Below, one piece after another: positions 454-51,188 of a stretch of 64,000 bases of DNA (position 1 is the stretch's first letter; each line of letters opens with the position of its first letter). Location of the stretch: assembly GCA_964494945.1 (NCBI GenBank), contig CAZBTX010000001.1, positions 67,088-131,087 on the forward strand, given 5' to 3'. The translations under genes were made by a program, and so were the position numbers. The notes under the pieces are model-generated. The model was not told where the DNA came from, did not search any database, and was given only the letters and a program-made list of their open reading frames with translations. The DNA is from an uncultured Candidatus Saccharibacteria bacterium. GTDB taxonomy: Bacteria > Patescibacteriota > Minisyncoccia > Sungbacterales > JACQCQ01.

Positions 454-3400
454 TTAAATGGAGGGAGTGGTGCTGGCGGTCGCTGTAGAAACCGCCGCGG
501 TAACAGTGGTAGTTGTGGCCATAGACGGGGTGGTAGTGGCCGTGTCAGTTCCGACGCTAGCGGTCGGAGCCCCAACCCCTTCGGGCGTCGGGGTTGTTGC
601 CGACGTCGTACTTGCGGTTAGGCCGGTGATATCAATTATGGGCGTGGCGGTTGATGTTATTGGGATTGGAGCGGCAAGAGACATACCGGAGGCGCAATCT
701 CCGGGTTCGGAATGCAGAACATTATTGTCGCTGAAGACGCAGACCGGATGTTGGGTGGCGCGGTCATAAATGGTTATACCGGTTTGGGTTATGTCCGCGG
801 CTTTAACTTGAATATTCTGCACGATTATTTTTTGTGCATTGATTTCCTCCGCTTCTATATACTTCATCGTCATGCGTCCCGTCTCGTCAATTTTCCATAA
901 GCCGTTTTGCGAGACGATTTGTCCGACTCCCAAGAGGGCATTGCCTCCCAAATTCACGTCCCCATAGAAGTTGACGTTGACCTTGCCGGTGGATTGATCA
1001 ACCGACCAGCCGTTGGTGGCAAGCGAACTCGAATTAGCGGCGGCAAGTTGCGGCACGGCATCGTCCAGTTTCGAGTATCCGAGGTTCACGAAAACCAGGA
1101 TTTTTCCGGTTCTGACCGTCCGGCCGTCGGGAAGTCCGACTTCGGCGGCGTTTGAAGTAGGACTTCCTGTTGTTGATTCGTCAAAGCTCTCCAAAGCAAT
1201 CCCCACGGTCATCCCTGAAGTCGTGGCCTTCATGCCCACTCCGGCAAGAGACGAGGAAGTTATCCTGTTGCCGATGGCAATGGGGCCGGATTCGGTGGAG
1301 ACCTTGACCGGGACGCGGCCGACGAGGGCAACGGAAAAATCCGGGCTTTTGCCATAGTCATCGCCAAGCACCATGCCCGGTTGGGTGGAAATCGCGCCAA
1401 GTAAAGTTTCTCCCGCGGCCGCTTTTTTGATAAAAGGCTTAGCGCTTGTGGCAGTGGCGATGGCGCCGGCGTCAAGCGAAATAATGTCGCCGGATTCAAG
1501 CGCTTCCAAAGATGGATACTTTTCCGCGATGTCGGTCCAGTTGGCGTGGGCGGTGCCGTAGTAGATGTCGCCGGCGGTGCCGACGGCGGTACAGTGGGTG
1601 TCCACGGCGGTATCAAAGCACCCGGCGCCCGCAACTTCTAATTTGGGGTCGGGATTCGTCGTCCCGATGCCGACGTTGCCGGTGTAATCAATGACAAACG
1701 CGGTTGTTGTCGCGCCCGTGCTTGTTGCGCCGGCAAATACCGCAAAAAGCGGGTCGGTGCTGAATGCCGCGCCTACCACGGTTAGCCGCGCGGGCACGCT
1801 GACGCTGGAGGTGGCAGATCCAATGCCTATTCCCACGTTGCCTAAAGAATCTATACGCAATCTTTCTCGGCCGCCGGTGGAGATGTTGAGCATGCTAGAC
1901 GTTAGAGACCATATGCCCGTGCTTATGTCGCCAGAGAACGTGAGCGCTGGAGAATCTTCGGCGCCGCTTGAGGAAAGAGTGAGGTGCGGGGTGGTGGTGG
2001 TTGCCGAGAAAAGTTCTTCTGCAAGCGCGCTGATATTGACGCCCTGCTGAAGGTTCATAAACACTAAAATTGTCTCGCCTATGGAAGCGGCGGTATGCGG
2101 CTCAAGCGCGATTCCGACAGAAGCGTCAAAAAGTCCCGCCTTCATACCCACACCAGGAACAGATGAAAGCGCGATGCGGTCGCCAATGGCAATCTCGCCA
2201 CCTTCCAGATTTACCTTCGTCGGCACCCGTCCGGCGAGAGCCACGGGGCGCTGCCCCGTCGCGTCTGTTTTGTCGGTGAGAAGAAGCCCTGGCTGTGTGG
2301 AGATGATGCCCGCAAGAGGACGGTGGTCTCCCCTCACTGCACGTTTCACAAAAAGCGGTTTTTCAAAATCAAAGGAAACAATCTCTCCGGCGGAAACCGA
2401 CGAGTCCGAGACGGAATAATTTTCCGCCAAGTCGGCTCCGGAGGTGACAGTTTTGTATTCGTAGACAATTATGCTGCCAGCGGTGCCAGCACCGCCGGCG
2501 CCGCTGGTGACACCGTCGCCGCCGCGGCCACCGATGTTGTCGCCAGCGGCGATACCGCCGATGTTGCTACTGCCACCGTTACCTTTCAAATTTACATCAC
2601 CACTAGAGCCACTGCCGCCGGCGCCGGGGGTGCCGGTGCCGCCTTCGCCGTTGCCGGCGCTGCCGCCGGCGCCGCCGGTTGCCTGCAGGAGCGGAGTGGT
2701 ACAGGCGGTAGCGTTTGTTCCGAAGCACAATTTCACGCCGTCTGTGCCGTTATTGCCGCCGCTGCCGCCGGCGCCGCCTCCGCCGGAGGTATATTTGTAT
2801 GTAGCGGCCGGAGTCGCAATAGATTTCATCGAGTACCCTCCCCCTCCCCCTCCCCCTCCGGTGCCGAGGCCGGAACCGCCGCCTTGGCCGCCGGCGCCGC
2901 CTCCGTTGCCCCAAAGCTCAACCACTATGTAGGAGGTGTTTGCTGGCGTGGTGTAGGTAGCGTCTGTCCCACTGGTGAATGTTTGAATCGAAGCGAACCG
3001 CACGACGGTATCGGTGTCCGCCGAACAGGTGACTCCACCCGAAGCGGTTATTGCTGAAACATGCTGACCCGCCGAGCAGGTGGTGCCAGTAATTAGGGTG
3101 TAGTCCGTGCCGTTGGCGGCCGCAGTGAATGCCGACGTGCCGTTTCCTTTAAGTACTCCGGTAAGTGTGGTGGCTCCCGTTCCTCCGTTGGCTACCGCGA
3201 TAGTTGCTCCGGTCCAGGTTCCGGAAGTGATGGTGCCGACTGAAGTGAGTGAAGAGCCGGTAACTCCCGAACCCAGAGTTGTGGCATTCAAAACCGAGGT
3301 TCCGTTAATTTGCAAATCTCCTCCGGAGCCGAGATTAAGGGTATTGGTTGTGAGATAACTCGTGCCGGCGCCTACTTGCAAAGTGCCTAATATTCTTAAG

Positions 3401-6400
3401 TTATTTTCTATAGTGGAGGTGCCGGTGCCTCCGACATAGAGCCGGTTAGCAACTGCGAGTTGTTCCGCCGGACTCGTTGTACCTACGCCGATGTTGCCGT
3501 TTTGATTTACGCCGCCAATAAAGAAAGCCGGTGTGGAACTACCTTGGTTTGAGACAACAAAGGAGGGGTTTGTGGTATTCATTTCTACCGAAAGATTGCC
3601 CCACGGACTCGTTGTACCTACGCCGATGTTGCCCGAGGTCGCGAGGAAGATAGATGAGGTGGCGGTGAGCGTGGCGCCGACGTAGGAGAGCATCTGCCCG
3701 TCCGTGCCGGTAGGCAGGCCACCGACACAAGTGCCATTCACCGCCAAGCATCCGGTCAGAACATTTAATCCGCTGCCGAAGGTGCTGGTGGCGGTGGCGC
3801 TGATATTGATGGTGTTGGCCCCAGTGTTACCAAGAGAGAGCAGTGTCCCCGGACTCGTCGTCCCGATGCCGACGTTGCCGCCAGACAAAATTGTCATGGC
3901 TACGGCATTATTAGTAGCGAATTGGAGAGGGAAAGCGCCGGCTCTATGTATAACCCCGGCACTGGCAGAAGTCCCTAAAGCAAGGGTACCTCCGCTGGTT
4001 GAATCAACGCCCACATAAAGAGGAGTAGTAGGAGCATTATTTATAATGTAGCGTGTTGCCGCCGCCTCAGTGCTTGCGTTTTCAATATACTGGTTTGTTC
4101 CACCACTAGAATTATATAAATGCAATTTTGCTCCAGGCGCCGCCGTCCCAATGCCGACGTTATTGCTCGAAAAATCATACACCAACCCGCTGGTTTCAAT
4201 GGCAAGGCCTCCAGTGATAGTCGAGGTAGCAGTAGTCGAGGTCGCGTTAAAGTTTCCGAAGGTCGGAGTACTGGTTCCCGTAAGAACTCCGGAAGCGTTA
4301 GTTGAAAGCAAACTATTGATGGGAAGCCCCGAAAGCGTCAGGGTTGTGCCGGTGGCGGTGATGTTGGCAACCGTGAGGTTGCCGGAGAACAACGCATTCC
4401 CCTGCACCGAGAGTGTTGTAGCCGGACTCGTCGTCCCGATGCCGACGTTGCCGCTCTGTGTGATAAATACGTCGGGAGAGCCGTAGGTTACCTGGGATGC
4501 AGGAGAATTCTCACTAATACCCCAAAGCCCAAGCCCCCTGTTATTAACAACATCGATGCTGGCATAGCCACCAACTGCACCATATGTGAATCCGTCGTCT
4601 GTTCCCGTGTACGCAGTGACCACTCCGCTTCCGTTTACATTCTGATTGAGGCTTCCTCCAGAGATAATTTGATTGGCACCTACAGTACCAGAAGTGATGT
4701 CCTTTTTAACCTGCAAAGCTGTTTCGGGTCCCGCCGTCCCGATGCCGACGTTGCCGGAGTTTGAAATTGTGAGAGCCGCAGGTGTTGAAGTCGCATACGC
4801 ATCCGTCGAAGTCCCCACATACAAGTTCCCGCCCATTGATGAGAAGAGCCAGTGTTTGAGGTTGGCTGATGCAGAAGTATCCGAGAGCGCGAATGAGGGA
4901 CGTGTTCCCGCGACTTGAAGGAGCCAGTTCGGGGTGGTCGTCCCGATGCCGACGTTGCCGCTCATATCCACAACAAACCGACCAGTCGTACCAGACGCGC
5001 CGCTATAGAGCGCGAGAAGATTAGAACCCGCCCCGTGCGCGGTGTCCGTGATCGCGAGCTTGTACACATCCACGACGCCGGTCGTATTGAGCGTTCCGCT
5101 CAAGCTAGCGAGCGATGAGGCATTGGAGCCGGTGAGGGAGTAGTTCTGAACATCAATTAATGTAAGATTGCCGCTGAAACTACTACTCCCAAGAACTAAT
5201 TTCGTCCAACGATGACCAGTGTCACCGATAGATGTGTTAGCTTCAGGATAAAAGCTCCCACCAGCGAACACAGCAGTTACGGCTCCATTGTAGGCAAATT
5301 GCAACGCTCCAGAACCTCCGACGATCATGTAGTCACTCGCCATAGAGAGCGCGGTCAAGTCCTGGGTGTTCGCTGCGTCACGATACATAATAGAGGAGCC
5401 GGCTGGCAATCGGATCGTCCCCGTCGTAGCAGGGGTCGCTCCAAAACTCAAAGCCCCTGACCCGCCAACGTGAAGAGCAGTCCCCGGCCCCGCCGTTCCG
5501 ATCCCCACATTGCCGCTAGATTTATCAACAAAGAGAAGCGGCGAGGAAGTGCCTACAGATAGGAGTGAGTTGGATGCGGGCGTGGTGGAGCCCACCGAGA
5601 ACACTCCGGCCAGAGTGGAGGTGGCTGTGGTGGAGGTTGAGGTGAAGTATGAAGAAATAAAGTTGTTGCCGAGAATATCCCCCGCAACCGAAAGTTTCTG
5701 CCCGGGCGTTGTCGTCCCGATGCCGACGTTGCCGGAACTCAAAACCGCAAGTTTGCTACTTCCGCCCACTTGGGCGTTTATCAAATAATTACTTCCGCTT
5801 CCGACTGATGTTTGTGTTGAATCTATGTTGAGGACTGTGTATCCTGCCGTGCCTGATTGCGCGATAGTCGGTTCAAGCGACATCCAGTTCTGATTTCCGC
5901 TCGCGGCAGTCAACCTCCCATCAGTATCTTTATCATCAAACAAATAAACAGTAGCTCCAGCAGTCGCTAAATCAGTTCCCTGATAAAGTCTAAGTCCTTG
6001 ATTAGTCCCACCACGAAAGAAATCTATATAAGAGTTAGAATTTGCTCCCTGAAAACGGTAGGAACGGAAACCGGTGCCTTCTTCGGTACGGGTATTGCTA
6101 ACTATTCCGTTGTTTGGCTGAAAGGCAATACCTCCAGCTGAAGTTTTTATCACAAAATCATCGTCTGTGTAGTGATATAAATCCGTATATCTTACTCCGT
6201 TTGCGGCATATATTCTTAGGGCGGGCGTTTGCACAGGACTGCCTGTCGGCGTTTTTAAAGTCAAAAGAACATCAGGTGTTGCCGTCCCGATCCCCACATC
6301 CCCGTTAGCATCCACAATAAAGCTGGTGGCGGTGGAGGAGCCAATGGCGAACGCGGTCTGGGTGGTTCCGGCCGGGGACTGAATGGAGAGCGTGGCAAAG

Positions 6401-8436
6401 GGCGAAGAAGTGCCAATACCCACTCTCCCGAAAGGCGAGGATGAAGTGTCCAAAGAAAGCAGAGGATTGGCGGCTGTGGTGCTTGTCGCCAGAGACCAGG
6501 CATTGACCGTCAGGTTGGGAATGGTGCTTGTCGCCCGATTGTTGTAGACAATGTTCCCGGAGTTGATGGAGAAAAGGTCTCCGATGGCATCACCCACATA
6601 TAAAGAACCCTCCACCAGCAAAGAGGAGGCGGAAGTGGAGGCCACGGTGACTGAACCGGCCGAGGTCAGGGAATTGACATACACATCCCCCTCGGCATCC
6701 ACCAGGAACTTGGTAGAGCCATTGACCGCCAGACCCAGGAGATTGGTATCGGAGACGGCTGATGCGGGATTGATATACAGGGAAGAGTTGGACACCGCCG
6801 CATTGGCCACTCCCGTGGCCCAGGCGGGAAAGGTGTGGGGCGTTACGGGGACATAGGTAGCCACCACCTGGCCGGAACTGGTGGTGGTGGCCGAGACGGA
6901 TAGAGTTCCGTTATTAGCCGAGAACACCCCGCCCACCGAGAGCGCCCCGTGGATCTGGGTGTCTCCCGATACTTCAAAGTTGCCGGAGGTGGTGGTGGAG
7001 ACACCCACCCCCAAGCCCCCGGTGAGATATGTATGGCCGGATACGGAAAGAAGCTGGGAGGGTGAAGAAGTGCCGATGCCCACTTTATTCCCCCCAAAAT
7101 CAACCACCAGAGTATCGGTGTCTATGGTCAGTCCTCCCGCCATGGTGGAAGTGGAGGTGGTATCGGTCAGGGTCAATTTAGAGGCGGTAACTCCTGCTGT
7201 TACCGTGAGCGACCCCGTGCTCACCATAAGATCACCGGTTCTCACGGTGGCGCCGTTATAAATGTCCAGGGAGTCCAGCTTGTCTATTCTCTGCGAGACG
7301 GTCACCATCTGGAGGGAAGAGCCGGCCACGCGGGAAGTATTATTCAAGTCCCCCCGCACGGTGAAGAGGTCATGGGAGAGGGAGGCCAGTTCCACTCTGA
7401 TTTTGTTGTTTTCCTGCTGAAAGAGTTGAGAGAGCTCTTGCTTAAGACCGGCGGTGTCCGTTATGACCAGTTGTCTTTCTATGATGGTGGAGGGTTGCTC
7501 TTGCTTTTCGGCAGATGCGGCTGGTTTCTCCGGCTCTTGGCCGTTTAGCGTAAATTCAACTGTTCCCGATGGCAGGGTCAAGGATTCACGGAATTTTGAA
7601 CCCAAAAGCAAATTGGAAAAGAAGGGCCGGATGTTCTTAAAAAGTCCCGCGATATTGCCTTCGCTTTGAATGATTTTCGCGACATTCCGACCGGTGTCTT
7701 GGGTGGCGGTGAGGCCGGATTGATAGAAATTTACGGACGCACCTAAAGCCGCATTTTTTAAAGCTACAAATGTTTTGCTGAAATCATTAGGATTTGAAAT
7801 GCCACGACTAAGCGCTCCGGCCAATTTTTCTAAAGTCAGGGGAATATTTTTTGTCTTTTCATAAACTTCAGATAACCCGATATCTTTATCAGGAATAATC
7901 TGCTTATGGGACGCCGAGACAAGAATGGGATTGAGGGTTCGACTGCCGTCTTTAACCAATGCCGCCAGATCAGCACGCGCGCTTATTGCCAATATTAGAG
8001 ACAACACAGCTAAGGTGCTTATTCCTAGAGGTTTAAATTTAAAAAAGAAATTTGGAAATTCAGATACTTTCGTTCTTTGATATCCTTTTTCTTTATAAAC
8101 ATTTAGCGTATAGAAAATATTTTCTCTCGGTATGGATGAAGAAACATGGTCGGGCTCCCGCAATTTCACCGTACTTTGTATCGGTTTTATAGGTACGCTC
8201 CGGGAATCGGAACGCGGAATTTTTACGCTTCTTTTCCATGAGCGGTTGTTTAGGTATCTCGTCAATTCCTCGGCGTCAATGAACCATCCATGCCCAATTT
8301 TTTCTCCGGCTATTACCCTCCGATTAATAAGAACTCTCAAAGAGTCCGGTTTGATGCCGGATAGATCCGAGGCCTGTATTAAATTCAAGAGTTTTTGCTC
8401 CATCCCGTTAGAGACAGGAAATGCGGCGCTCCGCAT
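454..8436 (-). CDS. Giant (2660 aa) surface/secreted repeat protein. It contains about 12 copies of an SGNVGIGT(T/A)xP beta-repeat motif (tail-fibre-like), a long Gly-rich tract, and two tandem C-terminal ~150-aa domains carrying a D(L/I)AE(N/K)Y motif. A hydrophobic segment (LGISTLAVLSLILAISARA) at about residue 130 is a signal peptide or TM anchor. The true start may be the second Met at 8403.
   Basis: Uninterrupted 7983-nt ORF. Repeated motifs were read directly. Composition is Thr/Ser/Gly/Asn-rich, typical of beta-helical fibre or adhesin proteins. Confidence 0.8.
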   Translation of the reverse strand: MRSAAFPVSNGMEQKLLNLIQASDLSGIKPDSLRVLINRRVIAGEKIGHGWFIDAEELTRYLNNRSWKRSVKIPRSDSRSVPIKPIQSTVKLREPDHVSSSIPRENIFYTLNVYKEKGYQRTKVSEFPNFFFKFKPLGISTLAVLSLILAISARADLAALVKDGSRTLNPILVSASHKQIIPDKDIGLSEVYEKTKNIPLTLEKLAGALSRGISNPNDFSKTFVALKNAALGASVNFYQSGLTATQDTGRNVAKIIQSEGNIAGLFKNIRPFFSNLLLGSKFRESLTLPSGTVEFTLNGQEPEKPAASAEKQEQPSTIIERQLVITDTAGLKQELSQLFQQENNKIRVELASLSHDLFTVRGDLNNTSRVAGSSLQMVTVSQRIDKLDSLDIYNGATVRTGDLMVSTGSLTVTAGVTASKLTLTDTTSTSTMAGGLTIDTDTLVVDFGGNKVGIGTSSPSQLLSVSGHTYLTGGLGVGVSTTTSGNFEVSGDTQIHGALSVGGVFSANNGTLSVSATTTSSGQVVATYVPVTPHTFPAWATGVANAAVSNSSLYINPASAVSDTNLLGLAVNGSTKFLVDAEGDVYVNSLTSAGSVTVASTSASSLLVEGSLYVGDAIGDLFSINSGNIVYNNRATSTIPNLTVNAWSLATSTTAANPLLSLDTSSSPFGRVGIGTSSPFATLSIQSPAGTTQTAFAIGSSTATSFIVDANGDVGIGTATPDVLLTLKTPTGSPVQTPALRIYAANGVRYTDLYHYTDDDFVIKTSAGGIAFQPNNGIVSNTRTEEGTGFRSYRFQGANSNSYIDFFRGGTNQGLRLYQGTDLATAGATVYLFDDKDTDGRLTAASGNQNWMSLEPTIAQSGTAGYTVLNIDSTQTSVGSGSNYLINAQVGGSSKLAVLSSGNVGIGTTTPGQKLSVAGDILGNNFISSYFTSTSTTATSTLAGVFSVGSTTPASNSLLSVGTSSPLLFVDKSSGNVGIGTAGPGTALHVGGSGALSFGATPATTGTIRLPAGSSIMYRDAANTQDLTALSMASDYMIVGGSGALQFAYNGAVTAVFAGGSFYPEANTSIGDTGHRWTKLVLGSSSFSGNLTLIDVQNYSLTGSNASSLASLSGTLNTTGVVDVYKLAITDTAHGAGSNLLALYSGASGTTGRFVVDMSGNVGIGTTTPNWLLQVAGTRPSFALSDTSASANLKHWLFSSMGGNLYVGTSTDAYATSTPAALTISNSGNVGIGTAGPETALQVKKDITSGTVGANQIISGGSLNQNVNGSGVVTAYTGTDDGFTYGAVGGYASIDVVNNRGLGLWGISENSPASQVTYGSPDVFITQSGNVGIGTTSPATTLSVQGNALFSGNLTVANITATGTTLTLSGLPINSLLSTNASGVLTGTSTPTFGNFNATSTTATSTITGGLAIETSGLVYDFSSNNVGIGTAAPGAKLHLYNSSGGTNQYIENASTEAAATRYIINNAPTTPLYVGVDSTSGGTLALGTSASAGVIHRAGAFPLQFATNNAVAMTILSGGNVGIGTTSPGTLLSLGNTGANTINISATATSTFGSGLNVLTGCLAVNGTCVGGLPTGTDGQMLSYVGATLTATSSIFLATSGNIGVGTTSPWGNLSVEMNTTNPSFVVSNQGSSTPAFFIGGVNQNGNIGVGTTSPAEQLAVANRLYVGGTGTSTIENNLRILGTLQVGAGTSYLTTNTLNLGSGGDLQINGTSVLNATTLGSGVTGSSLTSVGTITSGTWTGATIAVANGGTGATTLTGVLKGNGTSAFTAAANGTDYTLITGTTCSAGQHVSAITASGGVTCSADTDTVVRFASIQTFTSGTDATYTTPANTSYIVVELWGNGGGAGGQGGGSGLGTGGGGGGGGYSMKSIATPAATYKYTSGGGGAGGSGGNNGTDGVKLCFGTNATACTTPLLQATGGAGGSAGNGEGGTGTPGAGGSGSSGDVNLKGNGGSSNIGGIAAGDNIGGRGGDGVTSGAGGAGTAGSIIVYEYKTVTSGADLAENYSVSDSSVSAGEIVSFDFEKPLFVKRAVRGDHRPLAGIISTQPGLLLTDKTDATGQRPVALAGRVPTKVNLEGGEIAIGDRIALSSVPGVGMKAGLFDASVGIALEPHTAASIGETILVFMNLQQGVNISALAEELFSATTTTPHLTLSSSGAEDSPALTFSGDISTGIWSLTSSMLNISTGGRERLRIDSLGNVGIGIGSATSSVSVPARLTVVGAAFSTDPLFAVFAGATSTGATTTAFVIDYTGNVGIGTTNPDPKLEVAGAGCFDTAVDTHCTAVGTAGDIYYGTAHANWTDIAEKYPSLEALESGDIISLDAGAIATATSAKPFIKKAAAGETLLGAISTQPGMVLGDDYGKSPDFSVALVGRVPVKVSTESGPIAIGNRITSSSLAGVGMKATTSGMTVGIALESFDESTTGSPTSNAAEVGLPDGRTVRTGKILVFVNLGYSKLDDAVPQLAAANSSSLATNGWSVDQSTGKVNVNFYGDVNLGGNALLGVGQIVSQNGLWKIDETGRMTMKYIEAEEINAQKIIVQNIQVKAADITQTGITIYDRATQHPVCVFSDNNVLHSEPGDCASGMSLAAPIPITSTATPIIDITGLTASTTSATTPTPEGVGAPTASVGTDTATTTPSMATTTTVTAAVSTATASTTPSI
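1657..5733. repeat. Intragenic near-identical DNA repeats of 20-29 bp with core gtcgtcccgatgccgacgttgcc. Copies lie at about 1657, 3856, 4424, 4746, 4937 and 5711. Diverged copies lie at about 3470, 3606, 4145, 5491, 6283 and 7070.
   Basis: Exact nucleotide matches read in sequence. They encode the GNVGIGT motif on the minus strand and VVPMPTLP in a plus-strand frame. Confidence 0.85.
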
Positions 8437-8527
8437 TTCCGGAAGTTAACTAGTAATCTTGTATAGAGATTTTTATCGTTTCGGTTTCATAAATCATAGA
8501 TAAAGTAAGGGGTGGGTCTCTAACGGG
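8404..8527. repeat. Element bracketed by a 10-bp inverted repeat cccgttagag ... ctctaacggg. It contains a perfect hairpin ggaaatgcggcgctccgcatttcc (8417-8440). It overlaps the first annotated ATG of the giant gene and abuts the second Met (8403).
   Basis: The same two 10-mers flank tRNA-Thr (50566/50645). 9/10 variants sit at 46179/46308. Confidence 0.6.
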
Positions 8528-8963
8528 ATCCATCAGTGTAAGTTACGAATTCGTAACTTGTTCCCGTAACTAAATTATAGAGCCGATCATCAGAATAAAC
8601 CGTGTGGATAAAGTATTTATTCCACAACTTTTTAAAAACTATTCCTTATGTTTTAACGATGTGTTTTAGTGATGAATGAGTTGAGCGGCCAAATAAATAT
8701 CCGGTATTTGATAATTTAAACGGGGATGCCCCATGGTTTTTGATGGAGCGAACTTTTTACTTAAATTTAATCGGATTAGTAGATTATTAAATATAGATTT
8801 CATTTTTCAGCTATAGCGTGGTACTGAAAAAGACCTTTATTTTGTGATCTACACGAATAAATTAGCTTAGCCGATAAGATAGCGGCTTAGAGAAATTGCT
8901 CTGGTTGCGGAAATAGGGTCAATCTGTTAACCTATATTAGCTAATAATTAAGCTGCTGACGGC

Positions 8964-30847: not shown

Positions 30848-31116
30848 CGCCAAATTATATCATACCGTAAAGTATGATATAATTGGGTATAAAGTTTGAG
30901 CTATGAAACGCACCGTAAAATCCGAACGGCGGGAAAAGAAGAAAAAACGTCATTTAAAACGTCAATCCGGCAGGGGCGTTTTCTTGCTGGCTAAAATTAT
31001 ACGCGCTAAGAAATAATTGATCTCGTTAGAGATAGGAAATGACAGTCATTTCCGTCCGGCACTTCTTTAGTTTGAGGATATAACTTTGATTAAGGATGGT
31101 ATGATACAGTTTCAGC

Positions 31117-31527
31117 ATGGCGCCAGCATCTCTAACGGGGTTGACTGGTACCCATCTTTCGGTTATTCTTATAGAGCCAGAACCTACCCCCATGGGGCTA
31201 ATCTCTAAATTGATAGCAAGGGTTGCGCTGAATGCCGCCGTCATATACGGTATTGCGTATTACTTGCCCGGATTCCAAATTTCAGGCGGCACTAAAGGGC
31301 TGATACTCGCCGCTTTAGTGGTGGCACTGGCGCATTTTATCTTGCGCCCCATTTTAAAACTCATTTCCTTCCCGCTTCTAATCTTCACTTTCGGGTTTTT
31401 CAACATAGTCATTAATTTTTTCCTGTTATGGGCGGCCGATGCTTACTCAACCGCGCTAACCATTGCCGACTTGAAAACTCTATTTATTTCATCTATCATC
31501 ATTGGGTTCATAAACTCAATTTTCTAA
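31117..31527 (+). CDS. Small multi-TM membrane protein, DUF360 / phage-holin-4-like. Likely true start about 31192 (MGLISKL).
   Basis: Three or four hydrophobic helices. Resembles the YvlD/DUF360 family. Confidence 0.4.
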   Translation: MAPASLTGLTGTHLSVILIEPEPTPMGLISKLIARVALNAAVIYGIAYYLPGFQISGGTKGLILAALVVALAHFILRPILKLISFPLLIFTFGFFNIVINFFLLWAADAYSTALTIADLKTLFISSIIIGFINSIF

Positions 31528-45558: not shown

Positions 45559-45993
45559 TTAACTACTCCCCAGCTCGCCTAATCGCTCCGCGATTTCTTG
45601 TGTGTTCTCACCTATTTTGGCTTTGTGCTCCTGCCATCTCTGGTCACTCCATATCTCAACCCGGTCATAGAGCCCCACGACGACCGCCTGATTTTTAATA
45701 TCCGCGTGACCCCTAAGGTATTCGGGAATTAAGATACGGCCCTGCGAATCAATCTCGGCATCCGAGGCCCCGCCCAGCATATGCCGTGAGAAAGCCCGTG
45801 AATCGGCTTGGGTGATCGGCAGCTTTGCGATTTTTTCCGCGAGTTTCGCCCACTCTTCGGCCGGGAAAAGATAGAGGTGCGGGTCAATACCACGCGTTAC
45901 CACCACCCCTTCTTGAAGCAATTTGCGAAATTTGGCCGGGATTGCCATTCGCCCTTTGTTATCTACCGAATGTGCGTATTCGCCAATAAACAT
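45559..45993 (-). CDS. mraZ: Transcriptional regulator MraZ
   Basis: Duplicated DxxxR-type halves (HSVDNKGRMAIPAKFR ... DSQGRILIPEYLR). Confidence 0.9.
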   Translation of the reverse strand: MFIGEYAHSVDNKGRMAIPAKFRKLLQEGVVVTRGIDPHLYLFPAEEWAKLAEKIAKLPITQADSRAFSRHMLGGASDAEIDSQGRILIPEYLRGHADIKNQAVVVGLYDRVEIWSDQRWQEHKAKIGENTQEIAERLGELGSS

Positions 45994-45999
45994 AAGGGC

Positions 46000-46058
46000 T
46001 TATCCACAGATTTACTTATTTATCCCCACCTTTATCCACAATTCACCACTTATTCCCA
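46000..46058 (+). promoter_or_regulatory. Cluster of DnaA-box-like 9-mers. Two are perfect (TTATCCACA at 46000 and 46032). The others are TTATCCCCA at 46020 and TTATTCCCA at 46050. All are direct, in the mraZ upstream region.
   Basis: Seen in sequence. Consensus DnaA box TTATNCACA is established knowledge. Confidence 0.5.
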
Positions 46059-46177
46059 GTATTATGTTTCACTCCCCCATTGTCAAACATTTCACGCTGA
46101 ATTCTGATAAAAACAAAAAATGGCTTAATTGAGCCAATTTTTATAAAAACTCTATTGACTAATTCACAGGTTTTCCA

Positions 46178-46317
46178 CCCCGTTAGAAGTCCGCTTTCAC
46201 TATAGGAATAACTTTCTAGTGATGAAGCCAATATTGTGCTAGGACATCTTTTTTGATTTTAAGACGCAAAAGAAAGCGGCAGCCCCGACGTGACGTGGGG
46301 GCTTACTTCTAACGGGG
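46178..46317. repeat. Element bracketed by a 13-bp inverted repeat ccccgttagaagt / acttctaacgggg. It contains the hairpin agccccgacgtgacgtgggggct (46281-46303). It is a 9/10 variant of the cccgttagag / ctctaacggg elements at 8404-8527 and around tRNA-Thr.
   Basis: Seen in sequence. Sits at the left edge of the compositional island. Confidence 0.6.
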
Positions 46318-46364
46318 TCCACTCTACTAAAACTAGCTAAGTTCAATTGACAATCTTTTATCCT

Positions 46365-46451
46365 ATGCTTAGCTATAGCCAGTTCATTTCACAACCCTCC
46401 TTCTTAGCTGGAAGTGCCGTTAGAACAACGACCTTTCCACCCTGAGGAGGA
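46365..46451 (+). promoter_or_regulatory. Leader/promoter repeat A, copy 1 (~87 bp). Contains a TTCACA/TTGACA-like hexamer, the anti-SD-like stretch ccctcct, and the SD gaggagg.
   Basis: About 85% identical to 47322-47410. Its RBS portion is also repeated at 46912-46934. Confidence 0.6.
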
Positions 46452-46459
46452 ACTCAATA

Positions 46460-46645
46460 ATGCCAATCAGTAAGAACCGTCAACAGATGATCGGCCTCCG
46501 CCGGCTGAACGCACTGCTGAGAGTTCTCAGCTCGGCTCGCAAGGCAATTCGCCACTTCCAGCAGGGCCGTGAGGCGTGGGGGCGAGCCGCTCTCGCAGAG
46601 CTGGAACGGAATCTCCAGAGCCCGAACCTACCGAAACAGAAGTGA
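46460..46645 (+). CDS. Hypothetical 61-aa basic helical protein (island ORF1, high GC)
   Basis: ORF with strong SD, preceded by repeat A. Confidence 0.4.
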   Translation: MPISKNRQQMIGLRRLNALLRVLSSARKAIRHFQQGREAWGRAALAELERNLQSPNLPKQK

Positions 46646-46658
46646 GAGGAAACCTCTA

Positions 46659-46904
46659 ATGCCCAACTTCAATGCCGGATACCGGAGAATTGCCGAGTGC
46701 ATCTTTTTCTCGGGCATCGACGAACGCCGTTTGCTTACCCTCGCGACTTATCGCAAGAGCAAGACCTTCGCTGACGTTCGAATCGCAGTCGAAAAAGCAA
46801 AAGCAAGCTGGCACCGGAGACCGTTCAGAGATGTAGAGACACGCATCAGCGATGCGATTCGCGAAGTGGTGATCCCGAACGCCGCCGCATGCAAGGAAGA
46901 TTAG
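46659..46904 (+). CDS. Hypothetical 81-aa protein (island ORF2). Start at ATG 46659 with SD gagagg; the track ORF 46569-46904 overlaps ORF1.
   Basis: Frame-consistent ATG 13 nt after the ORF1 stop. Confidence 0.4.
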   Translation: MPNFNAGYRRIAECIFFSGIDERRLLTLATYRKSKTFADVRIAVEKAKASWHRRPFRDVETRISDAIREVVIPNAAACKED

Positions 46905-46939
46905 CAACCGCACGACCTTTCCACCCTGAGGAGGATTAA

Positions 46940-47257
46940 ATGAGATTGAGAATTGAAACCGGAGGTATACCCGTCACCGGATACGAAGTTCACGCACGGC
47001 TTCGGGGAGGACGCATTGTCTTCCGTATCTGGGATGGACAGAGGAACTCCTACGCGACAGATGAGATCACGGGGGCCGACGCGTGTGGCCGCTTGATCCG
47101 GTTTGAAGGCCGGCGAAATAAGCGGCTAACTCCCGCCGAAGCATCGCGGCGCGTGCAGAATGCAAAGGAGGACGGCTTCGAGTCGCCCTTCGTGACGTCT
47201 GGTGAGCTTCGTGATCCTTGGAAACAAGAAGGTCGACAAATAAGGCGCGGCATCTAG
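46940..47257 (+). CDS. Hypothetical 105-aa protein (island ORF3)
   Basis: Preceded by the repeated RBS module gacctttccaccctgaggagga. Confidence 0.4.
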   Translation: MRLRIETGGIPVTGYEVHARLRGGRIVFRIWDGQRNSYATDEITGADACGRLIRFEGRRNKRLTPAEASRRVQNAKEDGFESPFVTSGELRDPWKQEGRQIRRGI

Positions 47258-47276
47258 AGCCGCCCACTGCAAACGG

Positions 47277-47315
47277 GAAGCCGCCCATGCAGTACGGGCG
47301 GCTTCTTCTTTTTTC
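47277..47315 (+). terminator. Intrinsic terminator, repeat B copy 1: gaagccgccc-atgcagtac-gggcggcttc plus T-tract
   Basis: 10-bp perfect stem followed by ttcttctttttt. Confidence 0.8.
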
Positions 47316-47321
47316 TAAAAT

Positions 47322-47410
47322 ATGCTTAGCTATAGCCAGTTCGTTTGACAAACCCTCCTTCTTAGTTGGAAGCGCCTCTAACCAAGAGACCTTTCCACCC
47401 TGAGAAGGAG
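47322..47410 (+). promoter_or_regulatory. Leader/promoter repeat A, copy 2 (tttgacaaaccctccttcttagttggaag ... cctgagaaggag)
   Basis: Near-identical to 46365-46451. Confidence 0.6.
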
Positions 47411-47420
47411 AAGCTGGCAG

Positions 47421-47735
47421 ATGTCATTCAATGCCCTCCAGGAGATCCGCAAGCGGCGAGCAAGACATTCATTTTTCAGGGCATCCAGAGAAGCAAGAAA
47501 GGACAGAGCGAAGGGTTATAGGGTCATCTCAATTAGTCTCTATAACCAGCAAGCCGAAGCCGTTGACTGGGCAATGAACGTCCTACGCCGCGCCGGATAC
47601 CTCAACGCGAGCCGTTCGTTCGTCATACAGACCCTCATTGAACAGTGTCTTGAGGGTAAGAGCCCGAGAGAAATAGAGCGGTTCTTCGAGGGGCGCAGGA
47701 TGAATTTGCTAAAGCCGCGCTCACGCAAGAAATAA
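47421..47735 (+). CDS. Ribbon-helix-helix (CopG/Arc-like) DNA-binding protein, 104 aa (island ORF4)
   Basis: Beta-strand YRVISISL followed by two helices (YNQQAEAVDWAMNVLRRAGY; SRSFVIQTLIEQCL). Basic flanks. Confidence 0.45.
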   Translation: MSFNALQEIRKRRARHSFFRASREARKDRAKGYRVISISLYNQQAEAVDWAMNVLRRAGYLNASRSFVIQTLIEQCLEGKSPREIERFFEGRRMNLLKPRSRKK

Positions 47736-47746
47736 AGGAGGTAGCC

Positions 47747-48055
47747 GTGAGTGAGATTGTATCGCCGTGTAACGGTCTAGCGCGATGCTTCCGCCACCAA
47801 ACTAGATGCTCACGAATCGTGCTGACATCGCGGGAAGAGTATGCCGCACGCCAGCGCCGCAAAACGAGGCGCCGTCGTCTCTGGCGCATAATCCGTGAGC
47901 ATTATCGGGTCGGCGTAAAGTGGGGGCTAGACCCCATCCCGCACCGATACCACCTACAGGCGGTTCTCCTGATGGAGCGGGTGCGTGGTGAAGAGGAGCT
48001 ACGACAGCGTTTAGTAGCCAGCGGGCACATGGCACCCGAAAAAGAAGTAAGCTAA
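47747..48055 (+). CDS. Hypothetical 102-aa Arg-rich protein (island ORF5), GTG start after AGGAGG
   Basis: ORF plus SD spacing. Confidence 0.35.
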   Translation: MSEIVSPCNGLARCFRHQTRCSRIVLTSREEYAARQRRKTRRRRLWRIIREHYRVGVKWGLDPIPHRYHLQAVLLMERVRGEEELRQRLVASGHMAPEKEVS

Positions 48056-48109
48056 TAAGACCAATCCCGCAACGAGGAGAAGTTCTTCCGCCATGAGGAG
48101 GACAAGACA

Positions 48110-48499
48110 ATGAAGGCCACGTTGATAGAGTTCCCGTACAGCGTTGATACCGGTGATGAGTGCAAGGGGCCCCGGCGCCATACAGTGAAGTGCGGTGCCA
48201 TTCTCTTCGAGGATGGCGAACATAAGGTGCTCTTCCTCCAAGGCACTTACGACAGGCAGGGTGCGTTCTTCCATGTCACTGAGATGGAAGATGGCCGCCC
48301 CAAACTTGAGGGACACCTCTGGGATTATCGTGCGCCAGACGGTCCGGTGACCTCAATCAGGGAGCTCCCCTTCACTGAGGACCAGATACGTGCAGCGCTC
48401 GCGATGCCCGAGAAGCAGGAGTTGCTCCAGAACATTGCTCGGTCAATCAAGGAGATTGCCAAGCTCTGTGGCGAAACGGTACCAAGAATGAGTTACTAG
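48110..48499 (+). CDS. Hypothetical 129-aa protein (island ORF6)
   Basis: ORF preceded by gaggagga. Confidence 0.4.
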   Translation: MKATLIEFPYSVDTGDECKGPRRHTVKCGAILFEDGEHKVLFLQGTYDRQGAFFHVTEMEDGRPKLEGHLWDYRAPDGPVTSIRELPFTEDQIRAALAMPEKQELLQNIARSIKEIAKLCGETVPRMSY

Positions 48500-48584
48500 A
48501 CCTCGGCATCTCCGAGCTCCGAATGGTCACACACGAGAACTTTCGGCGCAAGAATGCGTTAACAAGCCGCCACACTGCAAACGG

Positions 48585-48623
48585 AAGACCGCCCAGCAGT
48601 ACGGGCGGCTTCTTCATTCTCAA
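48585..48623 (+). terminator. Intrinsic terminator, repeat B copy 2: gaagaccgccc-agcagtac-gggcggcttc
   Basis: About 50 bp near-identical to 47264-47315, including the upstream cactgcaaacgg segment. Confidence 0.65.
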
Positions 48624-48666
48624 CACGTTTTCTAAAGAAATTGTTTAAGTTATTCTGGGGTTATAT

Positions 48667-49131
48667 CTATAACAAAAGATTATCAATAGTATTTATTACA
48701 TACATAGCGTCAGAATGATACTTATATACTTCCGCCAAGGTAACCGTGATTGGTTGTCCATGAGCTAAAGCATTTTTATTTTCTACGATACTATTTAATG
48801 CATCTCGATTTTGTCTTGGAATACTGCGGACAGCGGCTTTCCAGGTCGGATTAAATCTACCCAAGAGTTCCCCAATCTTTTCCGTATCTGGATTACGGAA
48901 ATTATTCCCTAAGGAACTTTTGACAAAATTACTGATTCCATTGTTTCTAATCATGGAAACCATCTCATTTACAATTGTTTCAACAACCTCTTCATAAATT
49001 CCACAAATATAAACCACTAAAAATTTAGCTAAATATGCTTGCTCTAAATGAGAGGCTGAGGTAAAACTTTTAATATCCTTAATAGCATCATCGATCTGGA
49101 GAAGAAGATTACTAGCATTAAGACTTTTCAT
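48667..49131 (-). CDS. Hypothetical 154-aa alpha-helical partner protein, overlapping the DUF262 gene by 14 nt. The C-terminal segment ENKNALAHG weakly resembles a HEPN R/KNxxxH motif.
   Basis: Translational coupling with the upstream gene. Low GC (~33%). Confidence 0.5.
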   Translation of the reverse strand: MKSLNASNLLLQIDDAIKDIKSFTSASHLEQAYLAKFLVVYICGIYEEVVETIVNEMVSMIRNNGISNFVKSSLGNNFRNPDTEKIGELLGRFNPTWKAAVRSIPRQNRDALNSIVENKNALAHGQPITVTLAEVYKYHSDAMYVINTIDNLLL

Positions 49132-50236
49132 AGCCTAGATATTTGATAGCCATCCTAATTCTCCCCTGAACCTTATCTATATCCGTTGTTCCAGTAGAAA
49201 TATAGGATTTAAAACTCTCATTAGTCTTTAGTTTATTGTATTTCTTCTTGAGATCCTGGTCATTTTTATTAAGTAATATAGATGCAACTCCTACAGAAAC
49301 TGCGTCAAAAAGAGCTACATTAATTCCGGCTTTTATTCGGAAAGCATCTTTACCAATTTTCTTATACACAGTATTCATCACTTTAATGAAAATATTTTTA
49401 TATTTTTCTTGATCACCCTCAGATATATTACTTTTACTTTTCATGAAATCGGTTATAAAATCCTTCATAGGTTTTTTATAAGTCCTCCAACCATAATAGA
49501 GTGCAAAAAAACGAAGGATCATCTCTATGTCCTTCATACGTGTGTCTGATGTTGGCCTCTTGAGCAATTTCCTCCAGCTATCACATTGATTTAATGTGTG
49601 AAGAAATGAATTTATTTCTCCCTGAATAACTGCATTCCTTATTTCCTGTTGATTCAAAGGCATACCTCCCGTATTAAGGCGATAAAAAATTTCATAAATA
49701 CTTCTCTTATCTTGTGGATCAATCTGCTCAAAGACTGTGGCACGCAAAACTGTATTATTTAATTTACGTTTATCGGCGTCTGAAAGTTCTGCAAATAGCT
49801 TATTATTCCAAGGAGAATGCACTTCTTTTAGACGAAATGGGGCTCCATTTTCAAATGAACCCCTCAAATAGTACAGAATTGTCTTTAATCTCTGCTGTCC
49901 GTCAACTACAATTAGCTTTTCATCACCTTCTTTATACAGAAATACTTGAGGAACTGGGAGCCCAAGAAGAAATGATTCAATTAATTTACTAGCTTTTCGT
50001 TCGGGCCAAACATATTTTCTCTGAATAGTAGGCACATAGATATCCCCGTTAGAAAGCTGTTTAACCAAAACTTCAAGAGTATAGTCGGCCCCATAGGTCC
50101 TAATCTTATAAGAAGCTACATCTTCTTCTGAATCACGTTCTTCCGATTGGAGTTTCTCCAATACTAAATCCGATGCGGTTTGTTCATCCTCTATAGTATG
50201 CTCTGTTACAATAATTTTAACTCTTTTCTTCTTCAT
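49118..50236 (-). CDS. DUF262 (ParB-like, DGQQR-motif) domain protein, 372 aa, with no fused DUF1524/HNH nuclease
   Basis: Motifs LIVVDGQQRLKT and FYRLNTGGMPLNQQEIRNA are characteristic of the DUF262 N-domain of GmrSD-type enzymes. Confidence 0.7.
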   Translation of the reverse strand: MKKKRVKIIVTEHTIEDEQTASDLVLEKLQSEERDSEEDVASYKIRTYGADYTLEVLVKQLSNGDIYVPTIQRKYVWPERKASKLIESFLLGLPVPQVFLYKEGDEKLIVVDGQQRLKTILYYLRGSFENGAPFRLKEVHSPWNNKLFAELSDADKRKLNNTVLRATVFEQIDPQDKRSIYEIFYRLNTGGMPLNQQEIRNAVIQGEINSFLHTLNQCDSWRKLLKRPTSDTRMKDIEMILRFFALYYGWRTYKKPMKDFITDFMKSKSNISEGDQEKYKNIFIKVMNTVYKKIGKDAFRIKAGINVALFDAVSVGVASILLNKNDQDLKKKYNKLKTNESFKSYISTGTTDIDKVQGRIRMAIKYLGYEKS

Positions 50237-50276
50237 ACTTGTGGGCAGTGCAGGATTCTCACGATGACTATCGGGA

Positions 50277-50314
50277 TCCCGACTTCTTTATTTTATATCT
50301 GAATGTGCGTCGGG
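50277..50314. promoter_or_regulatory. Promoter-like element tcccgacttc-(AT-rich with TATAAAA on minus)-gtgcgtcggg upstream of the DUF262 operon. Direct repeat of 50720-50760.
   Basis: Shared 10-bp ends that are inverted repeats of each other (cccgac/gtcggg) flank an AT-rich -10-like box. Confidence 0.45.
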
Positions 50315-50348
50315 AGAACTTTTACGTAGGCACAGGGCCGCCTGATTT

Positions 50349-50433
50349 TAATTCTGATGGGCAGGGTGAGAGTCGAACTCACAGGGCCATTTAAGACAGC
50401 GGATTTACAGTCCGCCCCCGCCCCCTACGGGTC
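50349..50433 (-). tRNA. tRNA-Tyr (anticodon GTA), long variable arm
   Basis: Minus strand: acceptor GGGCAGG/CCTGCCC, anticodon stem GCGGA/TCCGC with loop containing GTA, T-arm GTGAG-TTCGACT-CTCAC. The D-arm assignment is less clean. Confidence 0.75.
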
Positions 50434-50573
50434 TACCTGCCCATATATTATCTAGATTTTTAAGAGCTTCCATAGCCCATACCTTTTGCCAAGAGCCGAG
50501 GGCGAGATTCACCTAGACCGCTGACTGCGTCAGCAGTCGGCCAAGGGAACTCGCGACCTGTTTATCCCGTTAG

Positions 50574-50645
50574 AGCCGACCCCGAGATTCGAACTCGGAA
50601 CCTACGGTTTACAAAACCGTTGCTCTACCATTGAGCTAGGTCGGC
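50574..50645 (-). tRNA. tRNA-Thr (anticodon TGT)
   Basis: Minus strand GCCGACCTAGCTCAATGGTAGAGCAACGGTTTTGTAAACCGTAGGTTCCGAGTTCGAATCTCGGGGTCGGCT. All four stems pair. Flanked by the 10-bp inverted repeat cccgttagag / ctctaacggg. Confidence 0.9.
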
Positions 50646-50719
50646 TCTAACGGGACTGGCGCAAAACAGTTGCACTGCCTACCGGCGGGCAGGTCTACCG
50701 CTCCGACGTTTAGTCAGAG

Positions 50720-50777: not shown

Positions 50778-51188
50778 CTAATTTTTATGAGGAGCTTCGT
50801 CTTTGGCTTTTAATTCATCCCAGTATTCTGGACCGGGAGTTTGTTCGGCAACGGCTTCGTGCTCATGTGTAACGCCATTTTTGTGCGCTTCGTACCTAAT
50901 GTTCAGAAACTGTATCAGATTGAACAAAACTCTTTCAAGCCGCAAGAGACCAATACGTACCCACCGAAGCGCCCGAAGCGAAACGCAAAATATTGGGTCC
51001 CAATATTCCCCTTCTTTTATCCAGGCCTTAATGCGAAGTACTCTGATATGCAACCTGGCCGACCCCTGGTCAAAGTAATCGTCTATCACTTGCCGGGGTG
51101 TCGCCAACACCATCGGAATTTTCCGCGTAATTACCAACGACGCCCCAACCACTCCAATGATAAATAGTATAAGTAAGAACCAGAGCAT
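50778..51188 (-). CDS. Hypothetical membrane-anchored protein (136 aa)
   Basis: N-terminal TM helix. No motif recognised. Confidence 0.35.
   Translation of the reverse strand: MLWFLLILFIIGVVGASLVITRKIPMVLATPRQVIDDYFDQGSARLHIRVLRIKAWIKEGEYWDPIFCVSLRALRWVRIGLLRLERVLFNLIQFLNIRYEAHKNGVTHEHEAVAEQTPGPEYWDELKAKDEAPHKN

Follow-up and report, generated by a model that had tools for sequence, protein, structure and literature searches.

How did a block of about 4.5 kb, lying between mraZ and a tRNA-Tyr/tRNA-Thr pair and departing in composition from the DNA around it, come to stand in the genome of an uncultured groundwater bacterium? We addressed this question in a stretch of 64,000 nt (the window), in which the region at about 46.1-50.7 kb was analysed. 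By the labels of its nearest relatives, the host belongs to the candidate phyla radiation (CPR, or Patescibacteria), whose tiny genomes are as a rule said to contain little mobile DNA and few defence systems. We found that the content of this place differs among related genomes, and consider with moderate confidence that the interval from the 3′ side of tRNA-Tyr to the mraZ promoter is a hypervariable integration slot of a Sungbacteria-like lineage, which in the window would hold at least three unrelated imports.

The layout given in a preliminary description of the DNA was confirmed: the block of about 4.5 kb lies between mraZ and the tRNA pair, with its open reading frames (ORFs), tRNAs and inverted repeats in place. 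The discontinuity in GC content that it had pointed out was also found, both in sliding GC and in GC at third codon positions (GC3). GC was 0.545 in the block 46319-48640 and 0.343 in the block 48641-50240, compared with 0.485 for the whole window, so that the contrast stood while the earlier values of 58% and 50% proved slightly too high (measured, 54.5% and 48.5%). The low-GC block was the minimum among all segments of its size in the window; 4.5% of the same-size segments reached 0.545, all of them in the region of a giant gene at 1-8 kb. Sliding GC ran at 0.52-0.58 over 46.3-48.5 kb and at 0.30-0.38 over 48.7-50.2 kb, with flanks of about 0.45-0.50, and GC3 was 0.58-0.69 in six plus-strand ORFs, 0.27-0.29 in two minus-strand genes and 0.45-0.57 in neighbouring core genes. 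The six small plus-strand ORFs with Shine-Dalgarno (SD) sites and the minus-strand low-GC module of a DUF262 protein and a 154-aa partner were both as first described. None of the eight ORFs had a recombinase domain in Pfam, PADLOC, PHROG or NCBIfam, and the segment held no integrase, relaxase or phage structural gene, in agreement with the earlier account.

Conserved flanks enclose different genes in relatives

The nearest relatives, by RsmH and by p136 (a 136-aa protein encoded at 50778-51188 on the minus strand), were metagenome-assembled genomes labelled Candidatus Sungbacteria or Sungiibacteriota. The nearest species by RsmH in the genome collection was 67-68% identical and RsmH synteny was uninformative; the informative relatives came from a protein search with p136. 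Related Sungbacteria had in common the order S2, EF-Ts, p136, tRNA-Thr, tRNA-Tyr, a variable segment and mraZ, with different content in the variable segment.

In contig L098 (p136 62% identical), the genes for L25, SLT, RF-1, L31, S2 (rpsB), EF-Ts (tsf), p136, tRNA-Thr and tRNA-Tyr were followed by a 193-aa minus-strand gene and then by mraZ, rsmH and dcw genes. This is the kind of comparison that the preliminary description had looked to, and it was answered in part: the tRNA pair and mraZ are only about 1.2 kb apart in L098, with the space filled by the 193-aa gene, which is unlike the cargo of the window and had no Pfam or PADLOC match. In contig L100 (p136 88% identical), tsf, p136, tRNA-Thr and tRNA-Tyr were followed by two attachment-site-like (att) repeats and then by an unrelated gene, and this gene fragment also had no match in Pfam or PADLOC. 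The gene order of L098 shows that the tRNA pair and mraZ are ancestral neighbours and that only the filling differs. A third contig, L006, has a pilin operon upstream of mraZ and is therefore uninformative for the tRNA side.

On the other side, mraZ (45559-45993, minus strand; Pfam 4.6e-37) is preceded by a promoter region (45994-46176, minus strand) with MraZ-box-like GTGG repeats, a promoter-like site TTGACA-17-AATACT and an upstream terminator hairpin (46121-46136). The promoter, GTGG repeats and hairpin aligned with L098 11750-11996 and L006 4440-4636, and the homology to both ended at the arm of a palindromic element, which makes the mraZ promoter region the conserved left border of the slot. 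The same flanks with different content among relatives indicate a hypervariable integration hot spot.

A tRNA-Tyr 3′-end copy beside the low-GC genes

Both tRNA genes lie on the minus strand and were called by ARAGORN and Rfam: tRNA-Tyr (GTA), with a long variable arm, at 50356-50443 (38.5 bits), and tRNA-Thr (TGT) at 50573-50645. An Rfam scan of 45.5-51.3 kb (E<=1) returned these two tRNAs and nothing else. The segment 50241-50355 on the 3′ side of tRNA-Tyr consists of an att-like scar and a spacer. The scar, GAGAATCCTGCACTGCCCAC (read from 50260 to 50241), is a copy of the 3′ end of an L100-type tRNA-Tyr and sits 95 nt past the tRNA-Tyr 3′ end; it resembles the L100-type tRNA rather than the window's own divergent tRNA-Tyr. 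In L100 itself, tRNA-Tyr is followed by a spacer of about 120 nt and then by two copies of its 3′-terminal 18 nt (GAATCCTACACTGCCCAC), the first exact and the second with three mismatches, after which comes the unrelated gene. Window positions 50241-50340 were 92% identical over 100 nt to L100 1529-1627, covering spacer and first repeat. The scar terminates 4 nt ahead of the ATG of the DUF262 gene (50236), and the homology to L100 ends there.

These data indicated that the actual att-like scar of the islet is the tRNA-Tyr 3′-end copy at 50241-50260, and not the cccgttaga/tctaacggg repeats. A scar of this kind, together with different cargo in relatives, is what site-specific integration at the 3′ end of a tRNA gene leaves behind, and from it we infer the recombination step. 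The start codons of the cargo genes in the window (50233-50240) and L100 (1735-1745) share the context AAGTATG, 4-8 nt past the att-like repeat, which leaves no space for an SD site or a promoter; transcription may continue from the tRNA into the cargo.

We found that the tRNA genes of the window diverge from those of L100 beyond what the 88% identical neighbour protein p136 would lead one to expect. The tRNA-Thr was 74% and the tRNA-Tyr 65% identical to those of L100, compared with 86% and 83% between L100 and the more distant L098, suggesting replacement of the tRNA pair. The orthologous tRNA-Thr genes of L098 and L100 were 71-74% identical to that of the window and had no palindromic arms. 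From these identities we suspect that the pair was replaced in the window's lineage. The tRNA-Tyr has in addition an unusual G-rich D-arm region, alongside its low Rfam score.

The 3′-end sequence recurred in a more distant genome. In the Minisyncoccia contig L086, the 3′ end of tRNA-Val(tac) (8362-8434), GATTCCTACACTGCCCAC, shared 17 of 18 bases with the att sequence of the L100 tRNA-Tyr (1405-1489), the common end being GA[T/A]TCCTACACTGCCCAC. This tRNA-Val/tRNA-Tyr end may be an att sequence shared between Minisyncoccia and Sungbacteria, with GAATCCTRCACTGCCCAC as a candidate attP. A second scar-like repeat stands in the spacer between the two tRNA genes (50444-50564), where 15 of 18 bases at 50493-50510 (minus strand; GAATCTCGCCCTCGGCTC) match the 3′ end of tRNA-Thr. 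The same spacer contains a GC-rich hairpin (gaccgctgactgcgtcagcagtcggcc), and neither ARAGORN nor Rfam made a call within it.

The low-GC genes form a predicted defence pair

The gene next to the scar encodes a 372-aa DUF262/GmrSD_N ParB-like protein with a DGQQR motif (49118-50236, minus strand; Pfam PF03235, GmrSD_N, 3.6e-30). It overlaps by 14 nt a gene on the same strand for a 154-aa RiboL-PSP HEPN protein (48667-49131; Pfam PF18735, 6.5e-16), a predicted RNase effector. In PADLOC the DUF262 protein scored best against NsnA (2e-78) and also matched PD-T4-2_A (2e-53, residues 30-366), and in PHROG it matched phrog_2598 (3.8e-81). A homologue on plasmids of E. coli and Salmonella was 37% identical over 96% of the length and had a PF18735 HEPN gene directly next to it.

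The combination of DUF262 and a PF18735 HEPN protein is that given for PD-T4-2 (PMC10952713), deletion of which from a native E. coli strain restores plaquing of T4, that is, the system protects against T4 (PMC9519451). Menshen requires the NsnB ABC-ATPase and the NsnC effector besides NsnA (PMC12065111). There was no ATPase ORF within 46-50.3 kb; NsnB and NsnC were absent and the HEPN gene alone follows the DUF262 gene. On account of the PD-T4-2_A match and the HEPN partner, and with no NsnB or NsnC, the pair was filed as PD-T4-2-type and not as Menshen, and judged from its sequence it is a predicted PD-T4-2-type defence system. It resembles PD-T4-2 in having a DUF262/GmrSD_N protein followed by a RiboL-PSP HEPN protein (Vassallo et al. 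2022), but differs in its CPR host, in a shorter HEPN partner (154 aa) with Lys for the Arg of the Rx4H motif, and in a DUF262 protein that scores higher to the Menshen NsnA model than to PD-T4-2_A. With Menshen (NsnABC) it shares the NsnA-type DUF262 match, but it has the HEPN partner instead of adjacent NsnB and NsnC. An 11-mer of repeat-arm sequence, CCCCGTTAGAA, occurs within the DUF262 coding sequence at 50044-50054, where its minus-strand translation is LSNGD; this could be a chance occurrence or a half-site.

Two tandem operons with related leaders

The high-GC block consists of two plus-strand operons, A with ORF1 (61 aa, 46460-46645), ORF2 (81 aa, 46659-46904) and ORF3 (105 aa, 46940-47257), and B with ORF4 (104 aa, 47421-47735), ORF5 (102 aa, 47747-48055) and ORF6 (129 aa, 48110-48499). 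Leader A (46364-46459) folds into a hairpin at 46398-46451 that pairs CCUCCUUC with GAGGAGG, the SD site of ORF1 (z = -2.9), and leader B (47321-47420) into an SD-sequestering hairpin at 47355-47410 (z = -4.5). The two leaders, of about 95 nt, were 81-91% identical, and the inner stem of the hairpin showed a compensatory change from CGUU/AACG in A to CUCU/AGAG in B, which suggests that the hairpin may gate translation of each operon. Terminator A (47257-47311), a GC-rich hairpin followed by a T-run (-30.8 kcal/mol, z = -5.1), is repeated as terminator B (48565-48618), with 83% identity between 47276-47311 and 48583-48618, while the ORFs in between are unrelated. Furthermore, a near-identical SD context, TTCCACCCTGAGGAGGA, precedes four of the six ORFs and occurs nowhere else in the window (four matches compared with 0.1 expected).

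The six proteins had no significant match in Pfam, NCBIfam, PADLOC or PHROG. An exhaustive search of 1.84 billion representatives gave 68 relatives with E<=1e-3, of which ORF1 had its own cluster only, ORF2 one, ORF3, ORF5 and ORF6 about 6-7 each and ORF4 about 40. The ORF5 family comprised 38 clusters among 5.8 billion and is marked by an almost invariant motif, SPCNGLxRCxRHxxGC, together with a helical hairpin of basic character; its few members with a named source organism came from Patescibacteria or Minisyncoccia, one being labelled only 'bacterium'. The 'actinobacterial' flavour at first seen in the high-GC block was not borne out, since all homologues with a named source organism were from Patescibacteria, and going by these the six ORFs would belong to rare, Patescibacteria-restricted orphan families. 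Nor did the phage or plasmid relatives that had been thought of appear: tblastn with the six ORFs gave no match in 50,697 phage records and none in 72,556 plasmids, and a scan of IMG/VR with the ORF5 family gave nothing. All six families were absent from the related contigs L006, L007 and L098-L102.

The AlphaFold2 model of ORF5 (pLDDT 85.5) showed a Cys/His knuckle and a helical hairpin, and that of ORF6 a beta domain with a long helix. Foldseek found no match in the PDB for the ORF5 model, the ORF6 model was also without a structural neighbour, and the family profiles of ORF3, ORF4, ORF5 and ORF6 gave nothing significant against the PDB. ORF4 is possibly ribbon-helix-helix-like by its sequence pattern, a fold that Pfam scans of 27 members of its family did not confirm; its weak PHROG matches (E = 0.026) were to a transcriptional regulator and an anti-repressor.

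Elsewhere, ORF5 homologues stand without the other five families, and ORF3 and ORF5 homologues are solitary chromosomal genes that mostly follow host GC, as in L089 and L096. The ORF3 homologues (L103 and L104) had no adjacent tRNA. Six different contigs had an ORF5 homologue close to a tRNA or tmRNA gene, at a distance of 44-403 nt: between rluD and tRNA-Val/Ile in L086, with tRNA-Val 44 nt away; between ddl and tRNA-Val/Ala in L089; beside tRNA-Val in L096; and beside tmRNA in L094, L095 and L097. By our own estimate of about one tRNA or tmRNA gene per 20 kb of CPR genome, this proximity is far beyond chance, and it would mark the ORF5 family as carried on elements that target such genes or come to lie next to them. 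The DNA flanking the ORF5 homologues showed no motif in common.

The cccgttaga palindromes form a dispersed family

The inverted repeats at the two edges of the region had been regarded as possible integration scars. We found that CCCGTTAGA was the most over-represented 9-mer in the window, with eight copies compared with 0.38 expected (21-fold), and that 13-nt arms YCCCGTTAGARRY bound four copies of a palindromic element in the window, at 8403-8528, 31021-31140, 46178-46317 and 50565-50655.

The left-edge copy, element E2 (46178-46317, 140 bp), has 13-nt arms CCCCGTTAGAAGT/ACTTCTAACGGGG within a perfect 14-nt inverted repeat (46177-46190/46305-46318) and is flanked by a 4-bp direct repeat, TCCA, at 46174-46177 and 46318-46321. 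L098 and L006 run straight through the homologous site upstream of mraZ, where L098 has a single TGGA. Its own TCCA duplication and the empty site in relatives show that E2 is a clean, separate insertion and not a scar of the island. E2 folds with -58 kcal/mol (z = -5.1), is strong on either strand (z about -5) and had no Rfam match.

The copy at 8403-8528 (arms TCCCGTTAGAGAC/GTCTCTAACGGGA, flanks TCCA/TCCA) directly adjoins a 2,649-aa ORF, whose start codon (ATG, 8403-8401, minus strand) takes its A from the last base of the arm. A copy at L098 9876-10001 (L098/L099) is of the same subfamily and lies at a non-orthologous site. The copy at 31021-31140 has a TTGA/TTGA duplication and two mismatches in its left arm; it is flanked by a basic ORF of 37 aa and a gene for a membrane protein, and shares with the 8403-8528 copy an internal hairpin AGGAAATG...CATTTCC. 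The fourth copy (50565-50655, minus strand) encloses exactly tRNA-Thr between its arms TCCCGTTAGA and TCTAACGGGA and has no flanking duplication; a perfect 17-nt inverted repeat (50565-50581/50639-50655) here lengthens the tRNA acceptor stem by cccgttaga/tctaacggg, and the stem can be written CCCGUUAGA/UCUAACGGG.

The same arms were found in other contigs, at L006 2757-2867 and 11094-11122 (the latter nothing but a 13-bp stem closed by a 3-nt loop), L086 1805-1873, L100 679-792 and L101 1010-1123. Perfect 4-bp flanking repeats were present at five copies (TCCA, TCCA, TTGA, TGAA and TCAA), and one further copy had a repeat matching at three of four bases. In L098, L100 and L101, a palindromic element exactly fills the space from the tsf stop codon to the p136 start codon. 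The elements of L098 and L100 at this place are of different subfamilies or orientations; those of L100 and L101 have no flanking duplication and that of L098 has a 3-nt TGA. What the window has at the same place (51195-51186) is only a 3′ remnant, TAACGGGATG, whose TAA and ATG are the stop codon of tsf and the start codon of p136, respectively. In three cases the 3′ arm ends on a start codon (GGGA/TG), namely at the giant gene of the window and at p136 in L098 and L100.

These properties fit a dispersed, MITE-like (miniature inverted-repeat transposable element) palindromic family that occurs in several CPR genomes and is unrelated to the island. Like MITEs and REP-like (repetitive extragenic palindromic) repeats, the copies do not code for protein, are short at 29-140 bp and end in conserved inverted repeats of 10-13 nt, with 4-bp flanking direct repeats at about half of them, non-orthologous intergenic sites and an empty site for one copy. 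The family differs from MITEs in that a partner transposase with the same ends was not seen in the sequences analysed, which do not cover the whole genome, and in having a copy around a complete tRNA-Thr, a bare stem copy and three copies ending on start codons. A single full-text literature search found no report of such a palindrome family in CPR, its one match dealing, to judge by title and abstract, with a different topic.

Other identities for the palindromes were considered, and that of integron attC sites was rejected. In integrons, attC sites have the order R″ (RYYYAAC) ... R′ (GTTRRRY) and lie downstream of each ORF with IntI nearby; here the order GTTAGA...TCTAAC is reversed, IntI is absent and the elements do not follow each ORF. 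A reading of CCCGTTAGA as a DNA-uptake sequence, prompted by its over-representation and its inverted pairs, was disfavoured by its density of about one per 8 kb, the flanking duplications and the fixed 13-nt arms. Four matches of the palindrome pattern in viral contigs were taken as chance, as their arms stop at 9-mers and they have no duplications.

Weighing the origins of the block

In the reading that we favour, the low-GC PD-T4-2-type module next to the tRNA would have arrived by site-specific recombination at the tRNA-Tyr 3′-end sequence, by means of an integrase that acted in trans or was lost. Its DUF262 ParB-like NTPase would sense invading DNA, and the RiboL-PSP HEPN protein would act as an RNase effector. 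The two tandem, moderately high-GC operons (ORF1-3 and ORF4-6) would represent a second import, in which opening of the anti-SD/SD leader hairpin would gate translation of each operon, and the 140-bp palindromic MITE-like element inserted on its own, with its TCCA duplication, at the mraZ-proximal edge.

Several observations weigh against this reading. No integrase or recombinase was found in or beside the island, and no further copy of the scar with up to three mismatches was found anywhere in the window, so that a distal att copy is absent for both modules and the integration mechanism rests on one scar and the analogy with L100. The high-GC block exceeds the background by only about six points, its GC is raised by Arg-rich proteins, and mraZ and tsf themselves have GC3 of 0.56-0.57; the foreignness of this block hence rests more on the variable slot than on composition. 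The empty site that the preliminary description had envisaged was not found at strain level, the closest relatives being short contigs with 88-90% p136 identity. The HEPN partner matched PADLOC PD-T4-2_B weakly (9e-4), and its motif is KNALAH compared with RHAFAH in the E. coli plasmid partner, with the His kept and the catalytic Arg changed to Lys. The leader structure is known from two sequences only. Of the three contigs with a tmRNA, two (L095 and L097) have the ORF5 homologue on the upstream side, ahead of the tmRNA 5′ end, so simple 3′-end integration does not fit all cases.

We weighed three other origins against the integration slot. That the block is the remnant of a prophage or plasmid at tRNA-Tyr, with integrase and structural genes lost and the DUF262/HEPN pair a moron or later arrival, appears unlikely. 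Six small, tightly packed, co-oriented orphan genes with strong SD sites, shared promoter-leader modules and terminators at a tRNA would suit such a remnant, as would the weak PHROG matches of ORF4 to regulatory genes and the phrog_2598 match of the DUF262 protein, but tblastn of the six ORFs against the phage and plasmid collections and the ORF5-family scan of IMG/VR gave no relatives, the homologues of ORF3 and ORF5 are solitary chromosomal genes outside phage-like blocks, and structural, replication and recombination genes are absent. It is quite doubtful that the block is ordinary lineage-specific content, with resident ORFs of biased amino-acid composition and one imported defence pair and no wider island. 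The deviation of the high-GC block is modest (0.545 compared with 0.485, with core genes reaching GC3 0.57), ORF3 and ORF5 homologues mostly track host GC, and identical copies of the block exist in several samples, the proteins of the region being identical on JACOYZ010000017.1 (GCA_016181625.1) and in several Logan assemblies of SRR121134xx runs. Ordinary content does not account well for a slot that is filled wholly differently in L098 and L100 despite conservation of both flanks, for six families that are missing from the related contigs, or for the sparseness of these families in Patescibacteria, ORF5 having 38 clusters among 5.8 billion.

A single degraded integrative element or composite transposon ended by the two cccgttaga/tctaacggg repeats is highly improbable. 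Both repeat structures do exist at the region edges, with 9-10 nt of their arms in common, but no fewer than eight other short elements, at unrelated places in the window and in other CPR contigs, have these arms at their ends. Compared with L098 and L006, the left copy is cleanly inserted, and it carries a TCCA/TCCA duplication of its own; the outermost flanks of the two copies taken as a pair (TCCA ... CTGG) do not repeat each other. The right copy has tRNA-Thr between its arms, and as this gene lies on the far side of tRNA-Tyr and of the conserved scar, the copy falls outside the variable segment. The earlier proposal is thus retained as to foreign or variable DNA beside tRNA genes, given that the slots of L098 and L100 differ, and set aside as to one element bounded by inverted repeats and as to these repeats as integration scars.

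Comparison with tRNA-targeted islands and further leads

The integration slot may be compared with tRNA-targeted islands of the tyrosine-integrase type, in which attL and attR are repeats of the tRNA 3′ end. The islet is like them in its location on the 3′ side of a tRNA, in the displaced tRNA 3′-end copy at the cargo boundary, in atypical composition and in different cargo at the same site in related genomes. It differs in having no integrase and a single att-like copy in the window, in tiny cargo (1.6 kb + 2.3 kb), and in a gene that begins 4 nt past the scar with no room for a promoter. The locus would be a tRNA-linked hot spot that swaps cargo between close CPR relatives, and it holds a PD-T4-2-type pair otherwise known from enterobacteria as well as a member of a dispersed MITE-like palindrome family common to distant CPR lineages. 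For annotation, it illustrates that conspicuous inverted repeats at the edges of a region can be unrelated to it, with the true att scar being a copy of a tRNA 3′ end that is easily overlooked.

This type of island is already known, and what is worth pursuing is the repeat family, the tRNA within its arms and the linkage of ORF5 with tRNA and tmRNA genes. At 50565-50655, the cargo of the hairpin may be a complete, divergent tRNA-Thr that replaced the resident one, that is, a transposable tRNA cassette. Alternatively or additionally, transcripts may be punctuated by the conserved 9-13-bp stem, acting as a signal for RNA processing, since the stem flanks a tRNA directly and ends at a start codon (GGGA/UG) in three cases; cleavage of the stem at GGGA/UG would result in leaderless mRNAs. 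The ORF5 Cys/His-knuckle family could be a factor of undescribed integrase-less cassettes beside tRNA and tmRNA genes of Patescibacteria. Taken together as one proposal, in which the YCCCGTTAGA palindromes are CPR-wide, cargo-carrying mobile hairpins and/or RNA-processing stems and ORF5 is an integrase-less cassette factor, these ideas are a long shot. The ORF5 linkage, the SD-sequestering leader and the arm-enclosed tRNA gene are offered as leads on gene flow and RNA processing in CPR, as candidates only.

Two features away from the block were also recorded. The slot of L098 (10820-11700) contains a GC-rich ORF, that of the 193-aa protein, with an N-terminal hydrophobic segment and GC-rich hairpins on both flanks. 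In the window, the giant 2,649-aa ORF (454-8403, minus strand), with 54% GC overall and 55-61% across 1-7 kb, is the sole other high-GC stretch, and gave weak matches to HTH_17 (N-terminal) and to Peptidase_G2.

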